Below, piece after piece: positions 1 through 11,645 of a stretch of DNA of 64,000 bases. Positions within the stretch are counted from its first letter, which is position 1, and every line of letters starts with the position of its first letter. The position numbers and the translations under genes were made by a program. The notes beneath the pieces were generated by a model. That model was given only the letters and a program-made list of their open reading frames with translations, searched no databases and had not been told where the DNA came from. This DNA comes from Syntrophales bacterium (lineage in GTDB: Bacteria; Desulfobacterota; Syntrophia; Syntrophales; PHBD01): assembly GCA_963668175.1 (NCBI GenBank), contig OY764159.1:64001-128000 (forward strand). The letters are read 5' to 3'.

Positions 1-906
1 GTCCTGCGGCCTCGCTATCGAAGGAATCGGCTTGCACGCCGCACGGATAACGATATCGGCGCCTGTCGTGATGCCGGCAAGGCTTCCCCCGGCATGGTTC
101 GAAGCGAATCCGCCGGGTGTGATGGGATCGTTACACTCCGAGCCCGTCATGCGTGCCGCCTCCAACCCGGCGCCGATTTCGACGGCCTTGACCGTTCCAA
201 TGCTCATCAGGGCCTTGGCGAGATCGGCGTCGATTTTGTCGAATACGGGATCTCCCAATCCGGGAGGACAGCCCTGAACGACGATTTCCACGATACCGCC
301 CAGGGTGTCGCCTTCCTGCCTGGCCTGACGGAGCTTTTCTTCCATCCTTTCAGCCGCAGCCGAGTCGGGGCAGCACAAGGCATTGCGTCCGGCATCGGCA
401 AGGGAATCGATGCGGCAAACGATACCGCCCAGTTCTCTCGTATAGGCTACGACTCGGATTCCAGCGCCCGCTATGACCTTGCGCGCTACGGCACCGGCGG
501 CGACGCGCGATGCCGTCTCCCGTCCCGACGCCCGGCCTCCGCCGCGATGGTCGCGGATGCCGTATTTCCTCAAGTAGGTTACATCGCCGTGGCCGGGCCG
601 AAGGATCGTCCTCAATGTTTCGTAATCGCCGCTGCGGGCATCGCTATTCCTTATCAAGAGCGAAATCGCCGTCCCCGTCGTCTTACCCTCGAATGTCCCC
701 GACAGTATTTCGACACGGTCCGCTTCCTTGCGGGGTGTCGCCGAATCAAGCCGTCCCGGCCGGCGCCGGTCGAGATCAACCTGTATATCCTCCTCGGTTA
801 ACGCCAGGTTCGGCGGACATCCGTCGATAATCGCTCCAATCGCGGGACCGTGGGATTCCCCCCATGTCGTAACCCTGAAAATCTCTCCTATGGAATTACC
901 CGCCAT
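1..906 (-). CDS. aroC: Chorismate synthase (3' end runs off the window)
   Basis: Manual translation from ATG at 906 gives [24 protein letters not shown]..., RPGHGD and [11 protein letters not shown]. Open to the window edge; absent from the ORF track. Confidence 0.97.
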
Positions 907-1447
907 ATCGGCCTCCCGTAATCGCCGCCCGTCGCTTTACCGCCAGGAGGCATACTTCTTCGGCAATCTCTTGTATCAGCCGCTCGTCCGTATCGATGCG
1001 GATATCGGCCGCCGACTCGTATCGAGGCCGGCGCTCTGCAAGCACAGCATTTACTTCGTCATATAAGCCCGCCTCGGAAAGGGCAGGCCGTTGCGACTCA
1101 CTCCTTGTATCGTCCTTCATCCTTCGAACGATAGCGGTTGTCCCGGCCGTCAGCCATACGAAAAAGCCATCCGCTTTGAGACACTGGACGTTGGCTTCGT
1201 CGAGAACCGCTCCGCCGCCAAGGGCAATGACACAGCCGTTTTCAGCCGACAGTTTCCGGACAACGGCGCTTTCTTCCTTCCGGAACGACTCCCATCCTTC
1301 TTCGGCAACGATTTCCCGGATCGTCCTTCCCGATTGTTCCTCTATTAGCGCATCGGTGTCGTAAAAGGGAAGCCCCATATCGGCGGCCACCTGTTTTCCG
1401 ATCGTTGTCTTGCCCGTGCACCGGTATCCTATGAAGACGATATTCAT
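896..1447 (-). CDS. aroK: Shikimate kinase
   Basis: P-loop [27 protein letters not shown] motif. Confidence 0.95.
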
Positions 1448-1450
1448 GGC

Positions 1451-2710
1451 TCAATACCACCTGTCCAGGATATCCCAAAATCCGGGAAAGGATTTCCCGA
1501 CGCAGTCCGGATTGGAGATGGTGATGTCGGGAACGGCCAATCCCAGGACGGCAAAGCTCATGGCGATGCGGTGGTCGTTATAAGTCTCGATCGCGGCACC
1601 GTGCGGTTTACCGCCGACGATGACCATGCCGTCTTCGATCTCTTCCGCATGGGTGCCGACGCGGCGAAGTTCGTTGACCAGGGCTTCCAGGCGGTTGCTC
1701 TCCTTCATGCGCAGGTGCGAGACATTACGGATGACCGTTCTTCCCGGCCGCAACGCTGCAAGAACTGCAACCGTAGGAACGACGTCGGGCATGGGTCCGA
1801 AATCGAACTCGTAATCGCCCCGCTGAAGGGGACCGCCGGTTACTTCGATCATGTTGTCCTTCCTGGCAACCTGCACGCCGAGGCGTTCCAGGACGGACAA
1901 AAATCCAATGTCGCCCTGGAGAGTTCCGGGATTGATATTATGGATACTCACCTTCCCCCGGCACACGGCCGCTGCGAGGCAGAAGTAAGAGGCCGAGGAA
2001 ACGTCGCCCTCGACGGTATACGACCTCGCCTGGTAATGCTGTTTTCCCCTGACACGGAAACGTCCCGGAGAAACCTCTTCTACATCCACACCGAAACAAT
2101 GCATGGCCTCGACCGTCATGTCCACATAGGGACGCGACGGGACGGGGCCCACGACATCTATTTTGCTGTCGGCGCCGGCCAATGGACAGCTGATCAGCAG
2201 GGAAGAGACGAACTGGCTGCTCGCGATATCGGTGAGCACGGCACGGCCGCCCTGTAAACCCTCCGTTCGGATTACAACGGGCGGACAGCCCCGACCATTT
2301 TCCGAAGCGGCATGGACCCCCAGGGAGGAAAGGGCGTCGAGCAGCGACCCGACGGGCCTTTCGCAGAGCCTCTCGTCCCCCGTGAGGCGGAATTCCCCTT
2401 TTCCCAGGGCTGCGACCCCCATCAGAAGCCTGATGGCCGTACCGTTGTTGCCCAGATAGATATCCGTTTGCGGCGCGGCGATTCTCCCGGCCGTTCCTTC
2501 GACGGTCAGGGTCTCCGGCTCGATCTCAATGACCGCCCCCATCAGACGCAGGGCCTTAATCAGGTATTCCGTATCCTTTGAAATCAGGGCATGGTGCAGG
2601 ACCGACTTCCCCTCGGCCAGGGCCGCAATAACCAAGGCCCGTTGCGTATAACTTTTGGAGCCCGGCAGTGTGACGGCGGCATTTAAATTCGGCAACGGTT
2701 TGATTTCCAT
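1451..2710 (-). CDS. aroA: 3-phosphoshikimate 1-carboxyvinyltransferase (EPSP synthase)
   Basis: LPGSKS, GNNGTAIR, SSQFVSSLL, KESNRL, DHRIAMSF, KSFPGFW. Start set at MEIKPL, overlapping the aroE stop (TAATG). Confidence 0.97.
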   Translation of the reverse strand: MEIKPLPNLNAAVTLPGSKSYTQRALVIAALAEGKSVLHHALISKDTEYLIKALRLMGAVIEIEPETLTVEGTAGRIAAPQTDIYLGNNGTAIRLLMGVAALGKGEFRLTGDERLCERPVGSLLDALSSLGVHAASENGRGCPPVVIRTEGLQGGRAVLTDIASSQFVSSLLISCPLAGADSKIDVVGPVPSRPYVDMTVEAMHCFGVDVEEVSPGRFRVRGKQHYQARSYTVEGDVSSASYFCLAAAVCRGKVSIHNINPGTLQGDIGFLSVLERLGVQVARKDNMIEVTGGPLQRGDYEFDFGPMPDVVPTVAVLAALRPGRTVIRNVSHLRMKESNRLEALVNELRRVGTHAEEIEDGMVIVGGKPHGAAIETYNDHRIAMSFAVLGLAVPDITISNPDCVGKSFPGFWDILDRWY

Positions 2711-3525
2711 TATAATCTCCCGAGCCTCTCCGTCACAGCACACTTCATAACATCGAGAGGCGGCTCCATGCCCGTCCACAGCCGGATCTGTTCGGCACCC
2801 TGGCCGACAAACATGCCGAGACCTGTATGCGTTACACATCCGGCAGCCTCGGCCTCCTGAAGCAACTTGGTCCTGATCGGATTGTACACGATATCGACCG
2901 CGTGTCGGAACCGCGGCAGGATTTCCTTCGGTACCGGCGAGGCTTCCATATTCGGAAACATGCCGACCGGCGTCGTATTGACCAGACAATCCCCAAGGAC
3001 TGCACCAATCTCTTCAAAAGGCAGCCAGGAACAGCCGAATTCCGCTGCCAGCCCGGCGGCCTTCTCCGCCGTCTTGTTCACGACGACCGGCAAACCCTTT
3101 TCCCGAAGAAGGCCGTAAACGACGGCCCGGGCCGCCCCCCCGGCACCGACCACCACAAACCTCTTCCCTCCAATATCCATGCGCGCCTTTAAATCGGCGA
3201 CGAAGCCCTGCCAATCGGTGTTATGGCCCGTAAATCGCCCATCGCGGCGGCAAACCGTGTTGACGGCCCCGATTTGCCTGGCCCCTTCGTCGATATGATC
3301 CAGATATTCCATCATGGAGACTTTAAAGGGGATGGTCACGCTTGCCCCGGCGATATCTCCCCCGCGCAGCAGCCGGACGGCCTCCCCGATGTCGTTGGGG
3401 CAAAGGGCCACGTAACGGGCGCCGATGCCCATCCTGGTATAAGCCGCGTTATGCATAAGCGGCGAGAGGCTGTGCGCTACGGGGTTCCCCAGGAGCGCGT
3501 AGGTCTTAGCGGTCTTCATCGTCAC
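2710..3525 (-). CDS. aroE: Shikimate dehydrogenase
   Basis: GNPVAHSLSP, VTIPFK, GAVNT, NTD, GAGGAARA, NTTPVGM, DIVYNP. Confidence 0.96.
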   Translation of the reverse strand: MTMKTAKTYALLGNPVAHSLSPLMHNAAYTRMGIGARYVALCPNDIGEAVRLLRGGDIAGASVTIPFKVSMMEYLDHIDEGARQIGAVNTVCRRDGRFTGHNTDWQGFVADLKARMDIGGKRFVVVGAGGAARAVVYGLLREKGLPVVVNKTAEKAAGLAAEFGCSWLPFEEIGAVLGDCLVNTTPVGMFPNMEASPVPKEILPRFRHAVDIVYNPIRTKLLQEAEAAGCVTHTGLGMFVGQGAEQIRLWTGMEPPLDVMKCAVTERLGRL

Positions 3526-4201
3526 CTGCCAGAATTCTGTGAAGCTGCCGCATCTCCTCCGCCGTCAACTGGCCGGGAGCGGTCCTTTCCTCAGGCGACA
3601 AGGCCGCGTAGCTGATACGCGATCCCCAGAAAGGCGCCATGGCCCTGCTCAAGCGGCCCCTGGGCCCCATGCAGAAAGCGATGATGTCCCGGCCCCTTTT
3701 TTGTGAATGGACAAGCAGATTCAAGATCTTGAAATTGTCCGCATCCGTCCTGGCATAAGGAACGACCTTCACGATATCGGCGCCTTCGCCACAGCCCCGA
3801 TCCACCTTGTTTCTCAATGCACGCTCGGAAGGTGTTCCCGACATATCGTGCCATGAGAGAATCAAGTGCGTTTTCCGCTTACAATGGGCAATGGCTGCAG
3901 CGATATTTTTCCTCAAGTCCGGAGACGTCTGCAGTTCCACGTCGATAAAATCCGCCCCCAGTTCGACCGCCTGCGTCAGCAGTGCGATTCGCTCGCCTTC
4001 GCTTCCGGAAAACAATCCTCCCTCTTCCCGGCAGCGGTTAGTGACGATGACCTTCTTTCTTTTCCCGGCAAGGAGCCGTTTCAGGTCGACATCCCTGATC
4101 CCGTCGATCCGCAGTTCTACAACATCTGCCAACGTGAAGGCATTCTTCATTTTGACCAGGGCGTCTTCGTTCGACTCGGGACTAACCGATATGCACATCA
4201 T
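3506..4201 (-). CDS. aroD: Type I 3-dehydroquinate dehydratase
   Basis: VELRID, EEGG, DFIDVEL, ILSWHD, ADIVKV, FCMG, APGQ. Start MMCISV overlaps the pheA stop (ATGA). Confidence 0.93.
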   Translation of the reverse strand: MMCISVSPESNEDALVKMKNAFTLADVVELRIDGIRDVDLKRLLAGKRKKVIVTNRCREEGGLFSGSEGERIALLTQAVELGADFIDVELQTSPDLRKNIAAAIAHCKRKTHLILSWHDMSGTPSERALRNKVDRGCGEGADIVKVVPYARTDADNFKILNLLVHSQKRGRDIIAFCMGPRGRLSRAMAPFWGSRISYAALSPEERTAPGQLTAEEMRQLHRILAGDDEDR

Positions 4202-5280
4202 GGCCGGTCCTGCCCCTGGGGATAAGATCCGAGAATTTTGACGAACGCCGCCTGGGTTTTCAGCTCCTGCAGGCATTTCCCGACCTCTTTGTCTTCCGCA
4301 TGCCCCAAAAAATCGGTAAAGAAGAGGTACTCCCATGCCCGGTCCTTGACAGGGTAGGACTCTATCCTCGTCAGATTGACACCGCGCTCCGCAAATGCCG
4401 ACAGGGCCTTATAAAGCGATCCCGGGGCATGGGCCGTCCCGAAAAGGATCGATGTTTTGTCCGCTCCCGTGGGCCTTACATCCCCGCGACCTATCACGAA
4501 GAAGCGGGTTGTGTTGCCCGGATGGTCTTCGATCCCTTCCGCCATGACATTGAGATGATAAGTCGATGCCGCGGCCTGGCTCCCGATCGCGGCTGCTACC
4601 GGGTCCTCGCCGACCCGCCGGGCTGCCCCGGCCGTGCTTTCGACCTCTAAAACGGTCGCCGCGGGCAGATTGGTCCTCAACCAGCCCCGGCACTGGGCAA
4701 TGGCCTGGGGGTGGGAGTAAACCCTGCGCACCGCTTCCAGATCGCGACCAGCCGAAAGCAGGCAATGCCTGATTCTCAAAAAGACTTCCGCCTTTATGCG
4801 AAGCGGCGTGGCGATGAGCCTGTCCAGGGTCAGCTTTACGGAGCCTTCAATGGAATTTTCAATCGGGACGATGCCCAGCTGAACCGCCCCCCTTTCCACC
4901 TCTTCAAAAACACCGGCTATGGACGAAACGGGACGCAGGCCGGCTTGTCTGCCGAATTGCGAAAGGGCCGCCATATGGGAGAAGGATGCTTCGGGTCCCA
5001 GGTAAGCGACGGACAGCTCGACCTGAAGCGCCCGGCAGGCGGAAACGATTTCCCTGAAAATATCGCCCAGGGCCGCATCGGTCAGGGGACCTTCGTTCAC
5101 GCCCGTCACGGATCTGAAAACGTGGCTTTCCTGGGAAGCATCGTATACGCTTCTTCCCTGGGCGTTCTTTTCCTCGCCGATCTCGACGGCCAGGGCAGCT
5201 CGCTCATTGAGCAATTTGACCATATCGCCGTCGGTCTTTCTGATCCTCCGCCTGAGGCGTTCCAGTTTGTTCTCAGCCAT
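4198..5280 (-). CDS. pheA: Chorismate mutase / prephenate dehydratase
   Basis: N-terminal CM2 domain, YLGPEASFSH, PIENSIEG, SHPQAIAQC, NTTRF, C-terminal ACT domain (NLTRIES). Confidence 0.96.
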   Translation of the reverse strand: MAENKLERLRRRIRKTDGDMVKLLNERAALAVEIGEEKNAQGRSVYDASQESHVFRSVTGVNEGPLTDAALGDIFREIVSACRALQVELSVAYLGPEASFSHMAALSQFGRQAGLRPVSSIAGVFEEVERGAVQLGIVPIENSIEGSVKLTLDRLIATPLRIKAEVFLRIRHCLLSAGRDLEAVRRVYSHPQAIAQCRGWLRTNLPAATVLEVESTAGAARRVGEDPVAAAIGSQAAASTYHLNVMAEGIEDHPGNTTRFFVIGRGDVRPTGADKTSILFGTAHAPGSLYKALSAFAERGVNLTRIESYPVKDRAWEYLFFTDFLGHAEDKEVGKCLQELKTQAAFVKILGSYPQGQDRP

Positions 5281-6373
5281 GCTTCAGTCCCTCGATCGTT
5301 TCCCTTACGACAGGTTCCGGAACTCCACCATTGACAAAGGGCATGCCCATTTTCTTGAGGAGAACAAAATGTATATTCTCTCCCTGTTTCTTTTTGTCCA
5401 TCTTCAGCCGCGCCAAAATAGCGTCGGTTTTCACACCCGGATCTATTCGTTCGACGAGACCCATGTTCCGGATGAAAGAGGTAATTCTATCGGCATCTTC
5501 ATTGCTCAGATAGTTGAGGCGTTGCGATATTCTCGTGGCGGCCGCCATGCCCACGGAAACGGCGTCGCCGTGCGGAATCGCATAATCCGATTCCGCTTCG
5601 AGCGCATGGCCGACGGTGTGTCCGAAGTTGAGGATTCGCCGCAGTCCGGTCTCTTTTTCATCGATCTCCACGATGTTTTTCTTGATCCGGCAGCACGACG
5701 CAATGAGTCCTTCCAAAAAGGATAAATCCCTGTTTCTCAGCTTCTCCACGTTAGCTTCCATCAGGGTGGCGAGTTCCGGCGATTCGATGAGGGCGTACTT
5801 CACCATCTCCGCCAAGCCGTTCCGGAATTCCCGATCCGGCAATGTCCTGAGAAAGGCCGTATCGATGAAGACCGCCTTGGGTTGATGGAACGTGCCGATC
5901 AGGTTCTTCCCGGCGGCCGTGTCGACGCCGGTCTTGCCGCCGATGCAACTGTCTATCTGGGCAAGCAGGGTCGTGGGAAAGTGGATGCACGGTATGCCGC
6001 GCATATACAGGGATGCCATGAGTCCTGCGATATCCCCCGTAACGCCGCCGCCCAGAGCGACGAGCGCCGATGTCCTGTCGGCGCCGAGCGCCGCCAGTTT
6101 TTCGGCGATCTCCAGGCAGGTGGAAAATGATTTGGACTTCTCGCCGGCGGGAAAGTCGATCGTGTCAACCTTCAAATCCGATCTCTTCATCGTCTCACAG
6201 AGAAGGCCGCCGTGAAGGGCTGCCACATTTTCGTCGGCGATGACAAAATAGCGCTTGGCCCAGTTATTCTTGGCCATGATCAGCACCGAACGGTCCAAAA
6301 TATCCTCGCCGATATGGATATCGTACGAATTGATCTGCTTCCGGTCGAGATTGACTTTGAGTTTGTTCATCAT
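5273..6373 (-). CDS. aroB: 3-dehydroquinate synthase
   Basis: [49 protein letters not shown]. Confidence 0.96.
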
Positions 6374-7395
6374 TGCACCCTGATTTCCCTTTTCATAACC
6401 CCCTCTATGATCCTGACCTCGTCCATCATCTGGTAGAACTGTTCCGGCCGCAACGACTGAGGACCGTCGGACATGGCCTTTTCCGGCTCCGGATGGACTT
6501 CGACGATGATTCCATCGGCACCGACGGCGACGGCGGCTCTCGTTAAAGGAAGAACATACTTGGAATAGCCGGCGGCATGAGACGGATCGACGATGACCGG
6601 CAGATGGGTCAGTTCCTTCAGAACGGGAACCGCACTGATGTCGAGGGTGTTGCGCGTTGCCGTCTCGAATGTCCGGATTCCCCGTTCGCAGAGAATCACC
6701 TGCTCGTTGCCGGACGACAGGATATACTCGGCCGACATGAGAAGTTCCTCGATCGTTGTCATCAGTCCTCTTTTCAGGAGCACCGGCTTCTTGGCCTGCC
6801 CGACCTTCTTCAGCAGGGCGAAGTTCTGCACGTTCCGGGCGCCGATCTGGAGGATGTCCGCATAGGCTTCAACGAGGTCCACATCCGTCGTATTCATAAC
6901 CTCGGTGACGACAGGCATGCCCGTCGTCTCCCGGACTTTCTGCAGCAGTTTCAATCCGTCTTCGGCCATTCCCTGAAAACTGTAGGGAGACGTCCTCGGC
7001 TTGAAGGCACCGCCGCGAAGAACGTGGGCGCCCGCCTTCCGCGCGATGTAGGCGCATTCCATGAGCTGCTCGTCGCTCTCGATGGAGCAGGGACCGGCCA
7101 TGACGATGAAGTCCGGGCCGCCGATCTTCAGATCACCCACCTCAATGACGGTATTGCCCTCCTTGACCTCGCGGCTGGCAAGTTTATAGGGCTTGAGAAT
7201 CGGCATAACCTTCTCCACCCCTTCCAGGAATTCCGCCGCCTTCAGATGGGCCTTGCCTCGGTCGTCGCCGACGGCGCCGATGATGGTCCGCTCCACTCCC
7301 CTGGACATGTGGGGATTGTATCCGACCGACTCGATCCACCTTACAACGTTATCTATCTGGCCCTCCGTTGCATTTTTTTTCATTAAAACGATCAT
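6370..7395 (-). CDS. aroF: DAHP synthase, type I-beta, with N-terminal regulatory domain
   Basis: [47 protein letters not shown]. Start MIVLMK follows GGAGG/AGGAG. Confidence 0.95.
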
Positions 7396-7410
7396 GCTCC
7401 TGACCTCCCC

Positions 7411-7448
7411 AAATAAAAAGGCCGTGACGTTTTCTGCCGCCACGGCCT
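7411..7448 (-). terminator. Intrinsic terminator T2 of the aro leader
   Basis: Minus strand: AGGCCGUGGC-loop-GUCACGGCCU followed by UUUUAUUU. Confidence 0.8.
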
Positions 7449-7449
7449 C

Positions 7450-7495
7450 AAAATAAAAAAGCCGCGGGCAGTATCACTTTCGATCCACCCGCGGC
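7450..7495 (-). terminator. Intrinsic terminator T1 of the aro leader
   Basis: Minus strand: GCCGCGGGUGG...CUGCCCGCGGC followed by UUUUUUAUUUU. Confidence 0.85.
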
Positions 7496-7517
7496 CTATG
7501 TTCTTATGTTATCCTTT

Positions 7518-7622
7518 TCAGATCCTCCTGAACGCCGGGCAGACCGATGCGAAGCTATAATAATAGCTAAACCAGTAGCTAAAGTTAAAGCTTGTTAAAT
7601 CGATCTTTGCGTCCTGCGTCAT
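7518..7622 (-). CDS. Aromatic-rich attenuation leader peptide (34 aa)
   Basis: MTQDAKIDLTSFNFSYWFSYYYSFASVCPAFRRI*. 10 of 34 residues are F/Y/W. GAAGG lies upstream; terminators and aroF lie directly downstream. Confidence 0.88.
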   Translation of the reverse strand: MTQDAKIDLTSFNFSYWFSYYYSFASVCPAFRRI

Positions 7623-7842
7623 ACCATCGGCCTTCGTTAAAATTTTGTTAATGAGATCATAAGGCGGACAAATATGTCAAGGAAAAATTTTTCCGGCACA
7701 TGTCACCCGCGTTTTCTTTCATCTTTAACTATCCGTATTTTTAAGGAATTTATTTATTCAAATTTTCTAAGTCTACCCTCTTCAGCAATTAAAAGAAAAG
7801 TGCTTCTCTTTGCTCACGCTAATGTCGATCAGGCAAGGACCA

Positions 7843-8991
7843 TCACGCGGAGGGATAATGATTCCGGTCCTTGAGGACCAGGCCGAGGTATCGTTTATAA
7901 TCTGCGGTACCGGACATCAGGTCCAGGTAATATTTACAGTATTTGGCATTCGCTTTCATCTTGCGCATGGCAAAGAGCGACATCCTGCGGTGATAAAAGG
8001 CTTTTCTCAACCAGAAGGCCTGCCGGAAAAGGGGATAAATCCTGCTGCGGAGGGCCGTATGATAGGCTGAAAGCACATCCTTTTTCGAGAGTATGGCTTC
8101 CGCCGCCAATTTCCCGCTCAGCATGGCAAAATACATCCCTTCGCCGGTGATAGGCTCTACCAGACCCGCAGCATCTCCGGCAAGCAACACCTTTCCTTTT
8201 CCCGGTTGTTTCATAAAATTGTGGAACGGTATCGGGTAGCCGCTCACGCGCTCCGGCATATTGGCCTCGTTTTTCAGAAGACGACGAAGAAAGACTTGAA
8301 AGTGGTCTTTCATGTTTTTGCCGTTGGATCTCGTCAAACCGCCGAGGCCGACCGTCGCGAAAGCAGGCTTGGGAAATACCCATCCATAACCGGCGTTGAT
8401 GAAACCGAAATGGATTTGCGGATAGACACCGTCATGGTCAAAACATGTCAGATGCTCATAGGGAATGTCCGCTTCGATGCCGACGGCAAATTCAGCCCTC
8501 CTGACGCGGGGGGAAACGGCCCTGCGGACAACGCTGTAAGGGCCGTCCGCGCCGACTATGAAGTCCGCGGCCAATACATCTCCATTGTCCAGGACGACAC
8601 GATCCTGCGCGACCGCCTTGACTGCATGCCCGCATAAGATCGTACATCCGGAAGCCCGGGCTTTGTTGAGGAAATAGTGATCGAAGCTCGTCCTGTCGAC
8701 GGCGAAAAACCGTTCGGTCGGACCGGACCATTTGCATATCTTTCCCAGGTCTGCATGATAAATGCCGAAGGCGGAGGACTCCATGAGCACAAAGTCCTGC
8801 CGTGCGACGTCCCCGTATATTTCCTTTATCAGGGGTATCGCTTTTTCGGTCAGGAGCCCGCCGCACAATTTCTTGCGGGGGAAGATGGCTTTATCGACGA
8901 CCAGGACCTTCCGGCCGTTCGCCGCCAGGGTATGTGCCGCGGCGGCGCCGGCGCAGCTTCCGCCCACGATGACCACGTCATGCTTTTCCAT
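7843..8991 (-). CDS. Geranylgeranyl reductase family FAD-dependent oxidoreductase
   Basis: VVIVGGSCAGA, FPRKKLCGG, GADG, GYGWVFPK, GDAAGLVEPITGEGM. Confidence 0.85.
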   Translation of the reverse strand: MEKHDVVIVGGSCAGAAAAHTLAANGRKVLVVDKAIFPRKKLCGGLLTEKAIPLIKEIYGDVARQDFVLMESSAFGIYHADLGKICKWSGPTERFFAVDRTSFDHYFLNKARASGCTILCGHAVKAVAQDRVVLDNGDVLAADFIVGADGPYSVVRRAVSPRVRRAEFAVGIEADIPYEHLTCFDHDGVYPQIHFGFINAGYGWVFPKPAFATVGLGGLTRSNGKNMKDHFQVFLRRLLKNEANMPERVSGYPIPFHNFMKQPGKGKVLLAGDAAGLVEPITGEGMYFAMLSGKLAAEAILSKKDVLSAYHTALRSRIYPLFRQAFWLRKAFYHRRMSLFAMRKMKANAKYCKYYLDLMSGTADYKRYLGLVLKDRNHYPSA

Positions 8992-9064: not shown

Positions 9065-10380
9065 TCACTCGATCTTGCCGGATGATCTGCGGGCGGCATT
9101 CAACCGCACGCTGACGGAGTTGCCGTGGCCGTCGAGACCTTCCAGCGCGGCAAAACGGGCCGTCCGGCGCCCGAACTTCTGCAGGGCTTCTTCCGAATAG
9201 GAGAGGACGCTCGTCCGCTTGATGAAATCATAGACGCCCAAGGGGGAAGAAAACCTGGCCGTGCCGCCCGTCGGCAGGATATGATTGGGACCGGCCGTAT
9301 AATCCCCGAATGCCTCCGGTGTATAATGGCCGAGGAAAATGGCACCGGCGTGTCTGATCTTTTCCATGAGCTTCCCGGGATTTTCGACCATCAACTCCAG
9401 GTGTTCCGGTGCAATGTCATTGGAAATACCGGCGGCCTCGTCCAAATCTCCGGCAATAATGACGGCGCCGTGCGATTCCAGCGCCTGCCGGATGATGTCC
9501 TTCTTGGGAAGGCGCTCCAGTTGGGCATTGACGTCCTTTTTCACCTCGGCAGCGTATGACTCGTCGGTTGTAACGAGAATGGCGCGGGCCATTTCGTCGT
9601 GTTCCGCCTGGGCGATCAGGTCCGCAGCCGCAAAAGCGGCCGGTCCCTTGCCGTCGGCGATAATCAAGACTTCGCTGGGACCGGCGATCATGTCGATATC
9701 CACCGCACCGAATACCAGTTTCTTGGCCGCCGCCACATAAGCGTTTCCCGGTCCGACGATCTTATCCACCCGGGGGATGGATTGCGTACCGTAGGCAAGG
9801 GCTGCCACGGCCTGAGCGCCGCCGACCTTGAATATGCGCGTCACACCTCCGATCCGGGCCGCGGCGGCGATCAGGGGATTCAGATTCCGGCTCTTGACAG
9901 GCGAGACGAGAATAATGTCTTCAACGCCGGCAATCACGGCGGGAATCGCCGCCATCAGGACCGTGGACGGATAAATGGCCAGACCGCCCGGGCATAGATA
10001 CCAACCCTATCCAGCGGCCTGACCCTTTGCCCCACGACCAGACCGTTTCGCTCGCGGATTTCATAGTCCCCTGTCTTCTGTTTTCGGTGAAACGCCCGTA
10101 TGCGTTTCGCGGCCAGGGTCAGAATGGCTTTGTCGTTTCTGGAAACCTCCCCTGCCGCTTTGTCCCACTCTTCCTGCGTCACCTCCACCGTGCGGGCGTC
10201 GAGTTCCTGATGATCGAATCTGGCCGTGTACTTAAAGAGGGCCCCGTCGCCGTTTCGGACGACGTCGTCGATGATGGCGCTCACGGACGACCAGATGCCG
10301 GCGTCGAACATCTCCCGACGTTGACTGATTTCTCGAAAGAAAGCGGCGAAACCGCTGTCGGTTGTCCTGATTGTTTTCAT
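9065..10380 (-). pseudogene. hisD: Histidinol dehydrogenase with a 1-nt frameshift near 9990 (true lesion or sequencing error)
   Basis: The N-part MKTIRT...RPLDRVGIYA and the C-part (YPSTVL)MAAIPA...KVGGAQAVAALAYG, GPGNAYV, AGPSE, QAEHD, PEHLEL, GPNHILPT are in different frames. The span is 1316 nt, one short of a multiple of 3. Confidence 0.9.
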
Positions 10381-10394
10381 GTCGTTACTCCTTA

Positions 10395-11645
10395 TCAGAC
10401 CTTGACGCGGACAATGTCTGCCCCCAGGGCGGAAAATTTCTTTTCGATAGCCTCGTATCCACGATCGAGGTGATAAACCCGGGAGACTTCCGTTTTGCCC
10501 TCTGCGGCAAGGCCGGCCAGGATGAGCGACGCCGAGGCGCGTAAATCGGTCGCCATGACCTGGGCACCCTTCAGCCTGGGAATCCCCCGGACAACGGCCG
10601 TATGACCCTGAATCGTGATGTCGGCTCCCATCCGCATAAGTTCGCTCACATGCATGAAGCGATTTTCGAAGACCGTCTCGGAAATGACGCTCAAACCGCC
10701 GGCCATGGCCATGAGCGCCATGATTTGTGCCTGCAGGTCCGTGGCGAATCCGGGAAAGGGGTGGGTCGTCACATCCACGCTTCTGATTGTGCCGGTGCCG
10801 ATCACCCGCATGCCGCCCTCGACCGGCTGAACTTTCATACCCGCATCCCTTAGTTTGGCGGTCAGGGCATCGACGTGCGACGGCTCGCAACCCATGACCC
10901 TGATATCGCCGCCGGTCATGCCGGCCGCGATCATAAAGGTTCCCGCCTCGATACGGTCGGACATCACCTCGGCGTCATAGGGTTTCAGCCGTTTCACCCC
11001 GTCGATGGTAATGATGTCGGTGCCGGCGCCGCGAATATTGGCCCCCATGCCGTTGAGGACCTCAGCCAAATTGACGATTTCGGGCTCGCGGGCGGCATTT
11101 TTCAGGACGGTTGTCCCGTCGGCCAAAGCCGCGGCCATCATGATATTTTCCGTGCCCGTCACCGTCACGGGATCGAAAAAGATCGTCGCCCCATGCAGCC
11201 TTTTGACATTGGCGACGACATAACCGTCTTTCAAGTCGATTTTCGCCCCCATATCCTCCAGGGCCTTGATATGGAGGTTAACCGGCCTGGCGCCTATGGC
11301 GCAGCCGCCGGGAAGGGACACGCGCGCCTCCCCGGTCCGCGCCACCAATGGGCCCAGAACCAGGATGGAAGCCCGCATGGTCTTCACCAACTCGTAAGAG
11401 GCTTCCGTATTCGATATGTTGCCCGCGTTGATCCGCAAAGGGGGCCCTTCGTCGATCTCGACGCCGAAACTCTTGAGCAGTTTCTTTGTCGTCTGGATAT
11501 CCACCAGATTGGGGATGTTGTGACACGTATTCCATCCGTCGGTCAGAAGCGAAGCAATCATGATCGGCAGGGCGGCGTTTTTCGCGCCGCTGACGCGGAC
11601 ATCACCTTCCAGTCTATGTCCGCCGTTGATAACGATTTTATCCAT
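10395..11645 (-). CDS. murA: UDP-N-acetylglucosamine 1-carboxyvinyltransferase
   Basis: [51 protein letters not shown]. Confidence 0.98.

Follow-up and report, generated by a model that had tools for sequence, protein, structure and literature searches.

How can an operon be induced when two terminators stand in series ahead of its first gene? Within the window, the 64,000-nucleotide stretch of a Syntrophales bacterium genome analysed here, a short open reading frame rich in aromatic codons precedes aroF, and two terminator-like hairpins follow it back to back. Leader-peptide attenuation is textbook regulation, drawn from a small number of Gammaproteobacteria, Actinobacteria and Firmicutes. 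A literature search whose coverage left out most subscription journals returned no description of this leader family or of a two-terminator leader-peptide attenuator. The second hairpin, T2, looks like a strong terminator, and induction would therefore need something that disables it.

We read the region as a ribosome-mediated attenuator of the shikimate/phenylalanine operon, built of six alternately pairing segments with two serial terminators, the second of which is silenced by a relay pairing, and we give this full reading a probability of about 0.58. That the region is a ribosome-mediated (leader-peptide) transcription attenuator of some kind is very likely, and such an aromatic leader switch very likely governs entry to aromatic amino acid synthesis. 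Comparison of related leaders establishes the predicted leader ORF, the hairpins T1 and T2 and the antiterminator; the pairing of segment 1 with segment 2, the kinetic order of events and the silencing of T2 by the relay are inferred.

The leader upstream of aroF

On the minus strand the order of elements is TTGACA, leader ORF, T1, T2 and aroF. The features on which the argument draws are the following.

896..7395, minus strand: aroF-aroB-pheA-aroD-aroE-aroA-aroK operon, all in one direction, the putative regulated genes of the leader
7411..7429, minus strand: segment 6, T2 3' arm CGUCACGGCCUU and U-tract to 7411
7434..7449, minus strand: segment 5, T2 5' arm GAGGCCGUGGCG and the GCAG of the T2 loop, candidate relay partner of segment 4
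7450..7471, minus strand: segment 4, T1 3' arm CUGCCCGCGGC (7471-7461) and U-tract UUUUUUAUUUU (7460-7450)
7476..7496, minus strand: segment 3, T1 5' arm and loop, holding the antiterminator 3' strand (7491-7480)
7518..7622, minus strand: leader ORF from the ORF list, 34 codons and a stop, MTQDAKIDLTSFNFSYWFSYYYSFASVCPAFRRI
7524..7529, minus strand: Shine-Dalgarno-like AGGAGG, formed by two AGG Arg codons directly ahead of the final sense codon and the stop
7534..7548, minus strand: segment 2, antiterminator 5' strand AUCGGUCUGCCCGGC with core GGUCUGCCC (codons V-C-P)
7551..7589, minus strand: regulatory run, codons 12-24 (F N F S Y W F S Y Y Y S F), nine aromatic codons in 13
7599..7635, minus strand: segment 1, ribosome-binding and start-codon region of the leader with its first codons, predicted from MFE helices to pair with segment 2
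7675..7680, minus strand: promoter-like -35 hexamer TTGACA, read from the sequence, upstream of the leader ORF

The first gene, aroF, encodes DAHP synthase and begins with an ATG at 7395, behind a likely Shine-Dalgarno sequence (GGAGG, 7408-7404). The NCBIfam matches of aroF, aroB, pheA, aroD, aroE and aroA lie above the curated cut-offs, and those of aroK all lie under the curated cut-off, the best being to shikimate kinase (E 1.6e-41). The TTGACA hexamer holds an identical position in 19 of 19 related leaders compared. The -10 element is weak (TG-n-TCTCAT-like) and does not fix a start site for the candidate promoter, and a consensus promoter scan made no call at the TTGACA region, 7675..7680. 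Elsewhere in the window, hisD (9065-10890, minus strand) is broken into a pair of ORFs, 9955..10890 and 9065..9955, that lie in different frames; the change occurs near 9985-9995, where ...RVGIY continues in the other frame as PGGLAIYPSTVLM..., and the split is either an assembly error or a pseudogene.

Leader peptides were parsed at 103 of 126 aroF loci, the other 23 falling outside the rules set for the motif or the ATG. The parsed peptides run from 22 to 34 aa, hold 5-10 aromatic residues each (Tyr 374, Phe 299 and Trp 119 over all 103) and share a conserved C-terminal tail, ...VCPxLRR(T). Of 144 Arg codons in the tails of these relatives, 134 are AGG, a codon that accounts for 13.6% of Arg positions across the genome, and the MFE structure of 40 of the 64 leaders that carry the AGGAGG motif pairs it with the pyrimidine-rich positions -10 to -5 of the leader AUG. 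The run of end-product codons lies directly upstream of the biosynthetic operon, as is typical of leader-peptide attenuators, and the downstream pathway matches the regulatory codons in each paralogue found (aromatic, Trp, Val and Phe). A conserved second small ORF was looked for between T1 and T2 and is absent, the only frame being one of nine codons with a GTG start in the variable T1 loop. Codon choice in the 103 leaders is mostly U-ending at aromatic positions (TAT 285 versus TAC 89; TTT 230 versus TTC 69), opposite to the preference of the genome (TTC 69%, TAC 56%).

How would such a leader work? In the OFF state, with aromatic tRNAs charged or the leader untranslated, segment 2 would be covered by a passing ribosome or paired with segment 1. 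T1 (3:4) would form and stop most polymerases, and segment 4, locked in T1, would leave segment 5 free for T2 (5:6) to stop whatever leaks through T1. In the ON state a ribosome, probably with a queue behind it, would stall in the Tyr/Phe/Trp run and leave segment 2 free to pair with segment 3 in an antiterminator of 12-13 bp. The freed T1 3' arm would then pair with the emerging T2 5' arm, the T1 U-tract serving as the loop of this relay (4:5), and segment 6 would be left partnerless, allowing polymerase to read into aroF. If this is true, the OFF leak would be the product of two leak rates, and the ON state would escape both terminators.

Two predicted terminators in series

The original prediction placed two back-to-back terminator hairpins ahead of aroF, T1 at 7450-7495 and T2 at 7411-7448, and both are there. 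T1 has a stem of 7496-7485 with 7471-7460 and an inner 3 bp, followed by UUUUUUAUUUU (7460-7450), and folds at -26.3 kcal/mol; the T2 stem joins 7449-7438 with 7429-7418, is followed by UUUUUAUUU (7419-7411) and folds at -23.5 kcal/mol. An intrinsic terminator between leader ORF and first structural gene, as leader attenuators have, is thus found twice. U-runs past hairpins were also looked for in the direction of the antisense strand and are absent from it.

Are these hairpins conserved? In a DNA search of 40 relatives, several families showed 68-76% identity over the stretch between the aromatic run and T2, both included. A covariance model, R1, covers 154 positions from the antiterminator 5' strand to T2 in 19 leaders, and its structure contains T1 and T2 only. 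Full-length matches to R1 occur in 147 of 151 sampled genomes of the order Syntrophales (113 of the 117 high-quality ones) and in 80 of 151 genomes of a phylum sample, which included the window's genome and four others of the same order; outside the order the count is 75 of 146. Matches to a leader consensus pattern, on at least 120 stretches, include Syntrophales, Syntrophaceae, Smithella and Smithellaceae. Downstream of the 153 order-level loci examined (30 + 9 + 4 + 110) lie 126 aroF genes, 15 genes for an ABC-type substrate-binding protein, 7 porin-like genes and one AroH-type chorismate mutase gene, and the remaining four loci are other leaders of the window's own genome. Helix arms were taken from alignments to the covariance model, an MFE-based parser having been dropped with 19 of 178 loci unresolved, and one alignment (A3), with six reverse-strand rows and a misaligned T2 in the transporter leaders of one genus, was left out of the pair counts.

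An Rfam 15 cmscan of 6900-8100 with E up to 10 returned no leader family (His_leader, Phe_leader and Trp_leader, the latter two being the families of the pheL/pheM/trpL attenuators, or others). The best match, SorY, scored 21.4 bits against a gathering score of 111 and amounts to just two hairpins.

Other leaders of the same genome lie outside the window (L051, L052, L053, L054 and L055), and hits of R1 include the first four in this list:

5 kb outside the window: Trp-codon (WWW) leader before trpE, two terminators
outside the window: Val-rich leader before ilvB, two terminators
outside the window: Phe-rich leader before a substrate-binding protein (transporter gene), two terminators
outside the window: Ala-rich leader before an aminotransferase, first hairpin without a clean U-tract
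outside the window: dapA leader, single terminator

A crude genome-wide terminator scan gave 715 candidates and 10 tandem pairs, and the only clean pairs among these 10 are the four at the aro, trp, ilv and transporter leaders. The two-terminator cassette of this genome spans the aromatic, Trp and branched-chain pathways and an amino acid transporter.

The aligned leaders speak clearly on T1 and T2. Among 100 aroF leaders of the order aligned to R1, 95.5% of T1 and T2 positions are paired, with double-sided changes at 15 of 23 pairs (166 cells) and none of 500 shuffles reaching any measure, although the alignment was fitted on these two helices, which favours their pairing figures. The picture outside the order is the same (95.7% paired, double changes at 14 of 23 pairs). 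Covariation across homologous leaders had been named as a check, and for T1 and T2 it is strong, which supports the original prediction of a leader-peptide attenuator with two terminator-like hairpins in series. Stems are conserved and loops are not. The four columns past the T1 stem hold T in 90-100 of the 100 leaders and those past the T2 stem in 72-98, and the consensus shows a longer U-rich run after T1. T2 sits directly past the T1 U-tract, with a median spacer of 12 nt (5-95% range 9-17); conservation of its 5' and 3' arms, counted by columns, does not clearly differ once the stem ends are excluded. Three of 25 out-of-order homologues are missing T2, with the T1 core unchanged, and the dapA leader has one terminator, so T2 is dispensable. 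Because homologues with T1 alone exist, T1 should be able to act as the sole terminator.

One of the closest parallels is the his leader of Escherichia coli and Salmonella, where hairpins AB, CD and EF compete with BC and DE and only EF precedes uridines (PMC10989985). Like the his leader as described there, the present one combines a peptide of regulatory codons with six alternating segments that would relay ribosome position to a final terminator: 1:2, 3:4 and 5:6 can form against 2:3 and 4:5, with mixed support for 4:5, the relay. Unlike in that description, the middle hairpin, T1, also bears a conserved U-tract (T in 90-100 of 100 leaders after T1), so that two termination points are predicted and the last hairpin is not the only terminator-like one. 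The design is thus a his-type six-segment chain whose middle hairpin is itself terminator-like. It bears no sequence relation to the his leader: at E up to 10, the leader families of Rfam gave no match.

Could T1 be a middle hairpin and nothing else? We consider it improbable that this is a his-type chain with one working terminator, in which T1 is the C:D hairpin, its U-run forms the relay loop and a partner for the A-rich linker, and the relay is the true T2 antiterminator. Such a chain would share its six-segment logic with the his leader (PMC10989985), and it would suit the long T1 loop (median 11 nt), the simple terminator scan of the region, which called T2 alone, and the Ala-rich leader, whose first hairpin lacks a clean U-tract. 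T1 itself argues the other way, with a GC-rich stem of 11-13 bp followed by at least four U in 90-100 of 100 leaders, as does the existence of T1-only homologues.

With both hairpins read as terminators, how does the leader compare with other attenuators? Stalling of the ribosome at aromatic codons selects antiterminator over terminator at pheL-pheA, pheM-pheST and trpL (PMC11802643). The present leader resembles these gammaproteobacterial ones in that aromatic-codon stalling would take place ahead of aromatic biosynthesis genes. They have a single terminator and runs of a single amino acid, whereas here there are two terminators and a mixed Tyr/Phe/Trp run; in them segment 1 shares sequence with the regulatory codons, and in the present leader it is predicted to be the start region; and their Rfam models gave no cmscan match. 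In Corynebacterium glutamicum, a Phe-Tyr-Phe leader lies before the DAHP synthase operon at aroR-aroF, which is induced by ribosome stalling (Neshat et al. 2014, as summarised in PMC11802643). The two systems would share a ribosome-sensed aromatic leader ahead of DAHP synthase and differ in phylum, and the summary in PMC11802643 describes no second terminator or relay for aroR-aroF. Two terminators in series within a 5' leader were also noted for the rimP-leader, where their inverted stem motifs are related (Naville and Gautheret 2010, PMC2965389). The rimP-leader has no leader peptide and its sensor is unknown, and the extra terminator lies upstream of the ancestral one; a leader peptide is present here.

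The antiterminator and the fate of segment 2

The predicted antiterminator pairs UCGGUCUGCCCG (7547-7536, codons 26-29) with CGGGUGGAUCGA (7491-7480) over 12 bp, three of them G-U, and the stretch from codon 25 to the T1 loop folds into it at -24.6 kcal/mol. The helix is present as first drawn and is conserved, with few compensatory changes. Its columns (14-24 with 83-95) are 86.9% paired, against at most 48.8% in slid controls, with double changes at three pairs and a covariation score that 4 of 500 shuffles reach. Two further pairs are gained in the T1 5' arm (columns 25-82, 97% paired, and 26-81, 74%), and the extended helix comprises 13 bp. Taken over both versions of the helix, pairing is 86.7-86.9% against no more than 49% in slid controls, and 4-8 of 500 shuffles match the covariation score. 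Because it reaches so far into the T1 5' arm, nearly the whole of that arm is claimed by two partners. The helix is exclusive with the terminator, as expected of an antiterminator, and its covariation is modest.

The core was compared in 152 leaders of all classes, 26 of 178 being unparsable. Leaders of the aroF, transporter and porin-like classes retain its nine base pairs, GGUCUGCCC with GGGYRGAYC, and most of the 19 leaders from other orders lose the last pair or two of them. A-U and C-G replacements occur in a few cases, and one genus swaps two outer pairs on both sides.

Might the conserved bases serve something other than pairing? The sequence could be kept less for a ribosome switch than for a product acting in trans, either the terminated leader RNA working as a small RNA or the conserved ...VCPxLRR peptide, or for a protein that recognises the repeated GCCRYGG motifs. 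This would account for the unusually high sequence conservation of the stems and the peptide tail. The leader RNAs and peptides of the Sinorhizobium trp attenuator have known trans functions. We nevertheless find this highly improbable: the alternative pairings explain the conserved bases, the regulatory codons fit the downstream pathway in each paralogue and the hairpin loops are unconserved.

On the ribosome-switch reading, the position of the ribosome would control the antiterminator. What, then, keeps segment 2 from segment 3 in the OFF state? The original prediction was that full translation masks the antiterminator, and this probably needs changing. When the leaders were folded up to the stop codon (n=103), segment 2 was 80% paired, with partners peaking at positions +2 to +9 of the AUG and in the 5' UTR; its partner in the window is 7635-7599. 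In these models the 1:2 pairing, which was absent from the original description, would be a classical anti-antiterminator. Since segment 2 and the AGGAGG motif both pair with the leader start region, the default fold would hide segment 2 together with the leader start. A ribosome protects roughly 12-15 nt 5' of its P site. The stop codon lies 8 codons past the V of VCP in 85 of the 103 parsed leaders, so a ribosome at the stop would barely cover segment 2. It would therefore be the 1:2 pairing and the transit of ribosomes, not their parking, that keep segment 2 away from segment 3.

The energetics bear on the same question. The whole leader folds better than 200 of 200 shuffles (z = -5.87). 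Stepwise folding, with 12 nt assumed hidden in the polymerase, offers a rough equilibrium view, not kinetics: for RNA free from 7549, the best fold is the antiterminator, with no T1, while the 3' end lies at 7470-7455, shifts to T1 from a 3' end at 7452, and with the 3' end at 7412 is antiterminator plus relay (14 + 14 bp, -48.3 kcal/mol). With segment 2 masked and the free RNA starting at 7529, T1 forms first and T2 after it. The full-length ground state is T1 with T2, at -58.5 kcal/mol versus about -46 for antiterminator plus relay (a sum of separate folds), and consequently the ON state would have to be kinetic, as in classical attenuators.

The proposed relay and the possible role of T2

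The proposed relay, a 10-bp pairing of CCGCGGCUUU (7467-7458) with GAGGCCGUGG (7449-7440) extended by CUGC/GCAG, can be drawn exactly where it had been placed, and folds as a hairpin at -21.6 kcal/mol. Its positions are paired in 93.8% of cells among the 100 aroF leaders; slid controls reach 62% at best. The predicted relay hairpin has a median of -16.5 kcal/mol and lies at or below -10 in 174 of the 175 leaders having T2. As a null from the window's own genome, the T2 5' half was scored against the T1 3' half alongside 707 unrelated candidate terminators; the cognate half was outdone by only 15 (aro), 7 (transporter), 0 (trp) and 55 (ilv) of the 707. Relay pairing exceeds chance expectation in this genome. 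Its four attenuators are cross-compatible in relay pairing, without cognate specificity.

Does this complementarity exist for the relay? The same attenuator could carry T2 as an unconditional back-up or as a relic duplicate of T1, with the relay reflecting no more than a shared GC-rich, partly palindromic core. T2 would then lower the OFF and ON levels by the same factor. We think this rather unlikely, and the evidence divides. The cross-compatibility just described agrees with it, as does the absence of relay covariation in the 100 aroF leaders of the order, where 330 and 254 of 500 shuffles do as well as the real alignment. The out-of-order alignment (26 rows, 23 with T2, one a reverse-strand match) points the other way: its relay is 94.3% paired versus 91.7 +/- 0.8% when shuffled (0 of 500) and has 10 double-change cells versus 4.1 (0 of 500), with C-G replaced by U-A at two internal pairs that have 0-1 unpaired cells. 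In six transporter leaders of one genus, T2 is internally mismatched, yet its 5' arm complements the T1 3' arm perfectly, and the relay hairpin (-16.5 to -20.7) is at least as stable as the T2 region (-14.6 to -18.6). Compensatory changes of this kind outside the order, and in one genus at the cost of the T2 stem, speak against a mere back-up. Covariation in the alternative helices, a proposed check on the scheme, is therefore positive though modest for the antiterminator, whereas for the relay it is absent among the aroF leaders of the order and present to some degree outside it.

Single mismatches in the relay are frequent, as an unselected pairing would have them: at least one falls within the 7 core pairs in about 31 of 162 leaders, and these make up a dozen variant classes. 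Over 175 leaders (150 distinct), the mean number of mismatches per 7 core pairs is 0.293 for the relay, 0.020 for T1 and 0.167 for T2, so any selection on the relay would be weaker than that on the terminators. Permutation lowers the fit of the relay (0.293 versus 0.412 core mismatches permuted, 0 of 5000) and likewise that of a control pairing between the T1 5' arm and the T2 3' arm (0.420 versus 0.567, 0 of 5000; 88.7% paired versus 94.3% for the relay, 11-14 of 500 permutations), kin being non-independent in these as in every relay pairing and permutation test. That the by-product control gives a similar signal is in keeping with a back-up T2. The T1 and T2 cores are nearly identical, and relay complementarity may for that reason simply follow from the two hairpins having a common origin. 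What the permutations show is that both hairpins share one core in each lineage; they do not point to the pairing that selects for it. The T1 core, moreover, is already constrained by the antiterminator (to columns 81-82) and is unchanged in homologues without T2. Against a back-up stand three further points: the conserved part of T2 is the stretch that faces the T1 3' arm, whereas its apical pair varies freely; T2 always lies directly past the T1 U-tract; and an unconditional strong terminator ahead of the operon would waste induction. We regard the relay helix as plausible, and as unproven.

How far might a relay-silenced T2 extend beyond this operon? We would give even odds to a modular two-stage attenuator in which T2 is conditional and read out through a strand relay, the cassette occurring in at least four pathways and much of the phylum, which for some relatives is given as Thermodesulfobacteriota/Desulfobacterota. 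If the relay works, a kinetic RNA switch would gain dynamic range by chaining a second, conditional terminator to the first. In vitro transcription offers a direct test of the idea, which would also serve the design of synthetic RNA switches. The leaders form a large uncurated RNA family with no Rfam match, in a mostly uncultured anaerobic lineage, and R1 can be used to annotate hundreds of them along with small ORFs missed by gene callers.

Several members of this family are unusual in their context. In other orders, the aromatic leaders L172, L175, L176, L178-L180, L183, L189-L191, L194 and L196 precede a gene starting ...GK(R/Q)IR(L/M)ERI...PMDHG. This gene presumably resembles not DAHP synthase but the aldolase-type ADH synthase by which dehydroquinate is made on an alternative route. 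Among the matches listed, L248 is the sole Syntrophales-type leader in a bin labelled uncultured Treponema sp.; it lies on a 6790-base contig, and the spirochaete label is probably a binning error. In L159, the leader before the AroH-type chorismate mutase, a second copy of the T1 5' arm with a U-run follows T1 in place of a separate T2 hairpin, and R1 also matches the opposite strand there.
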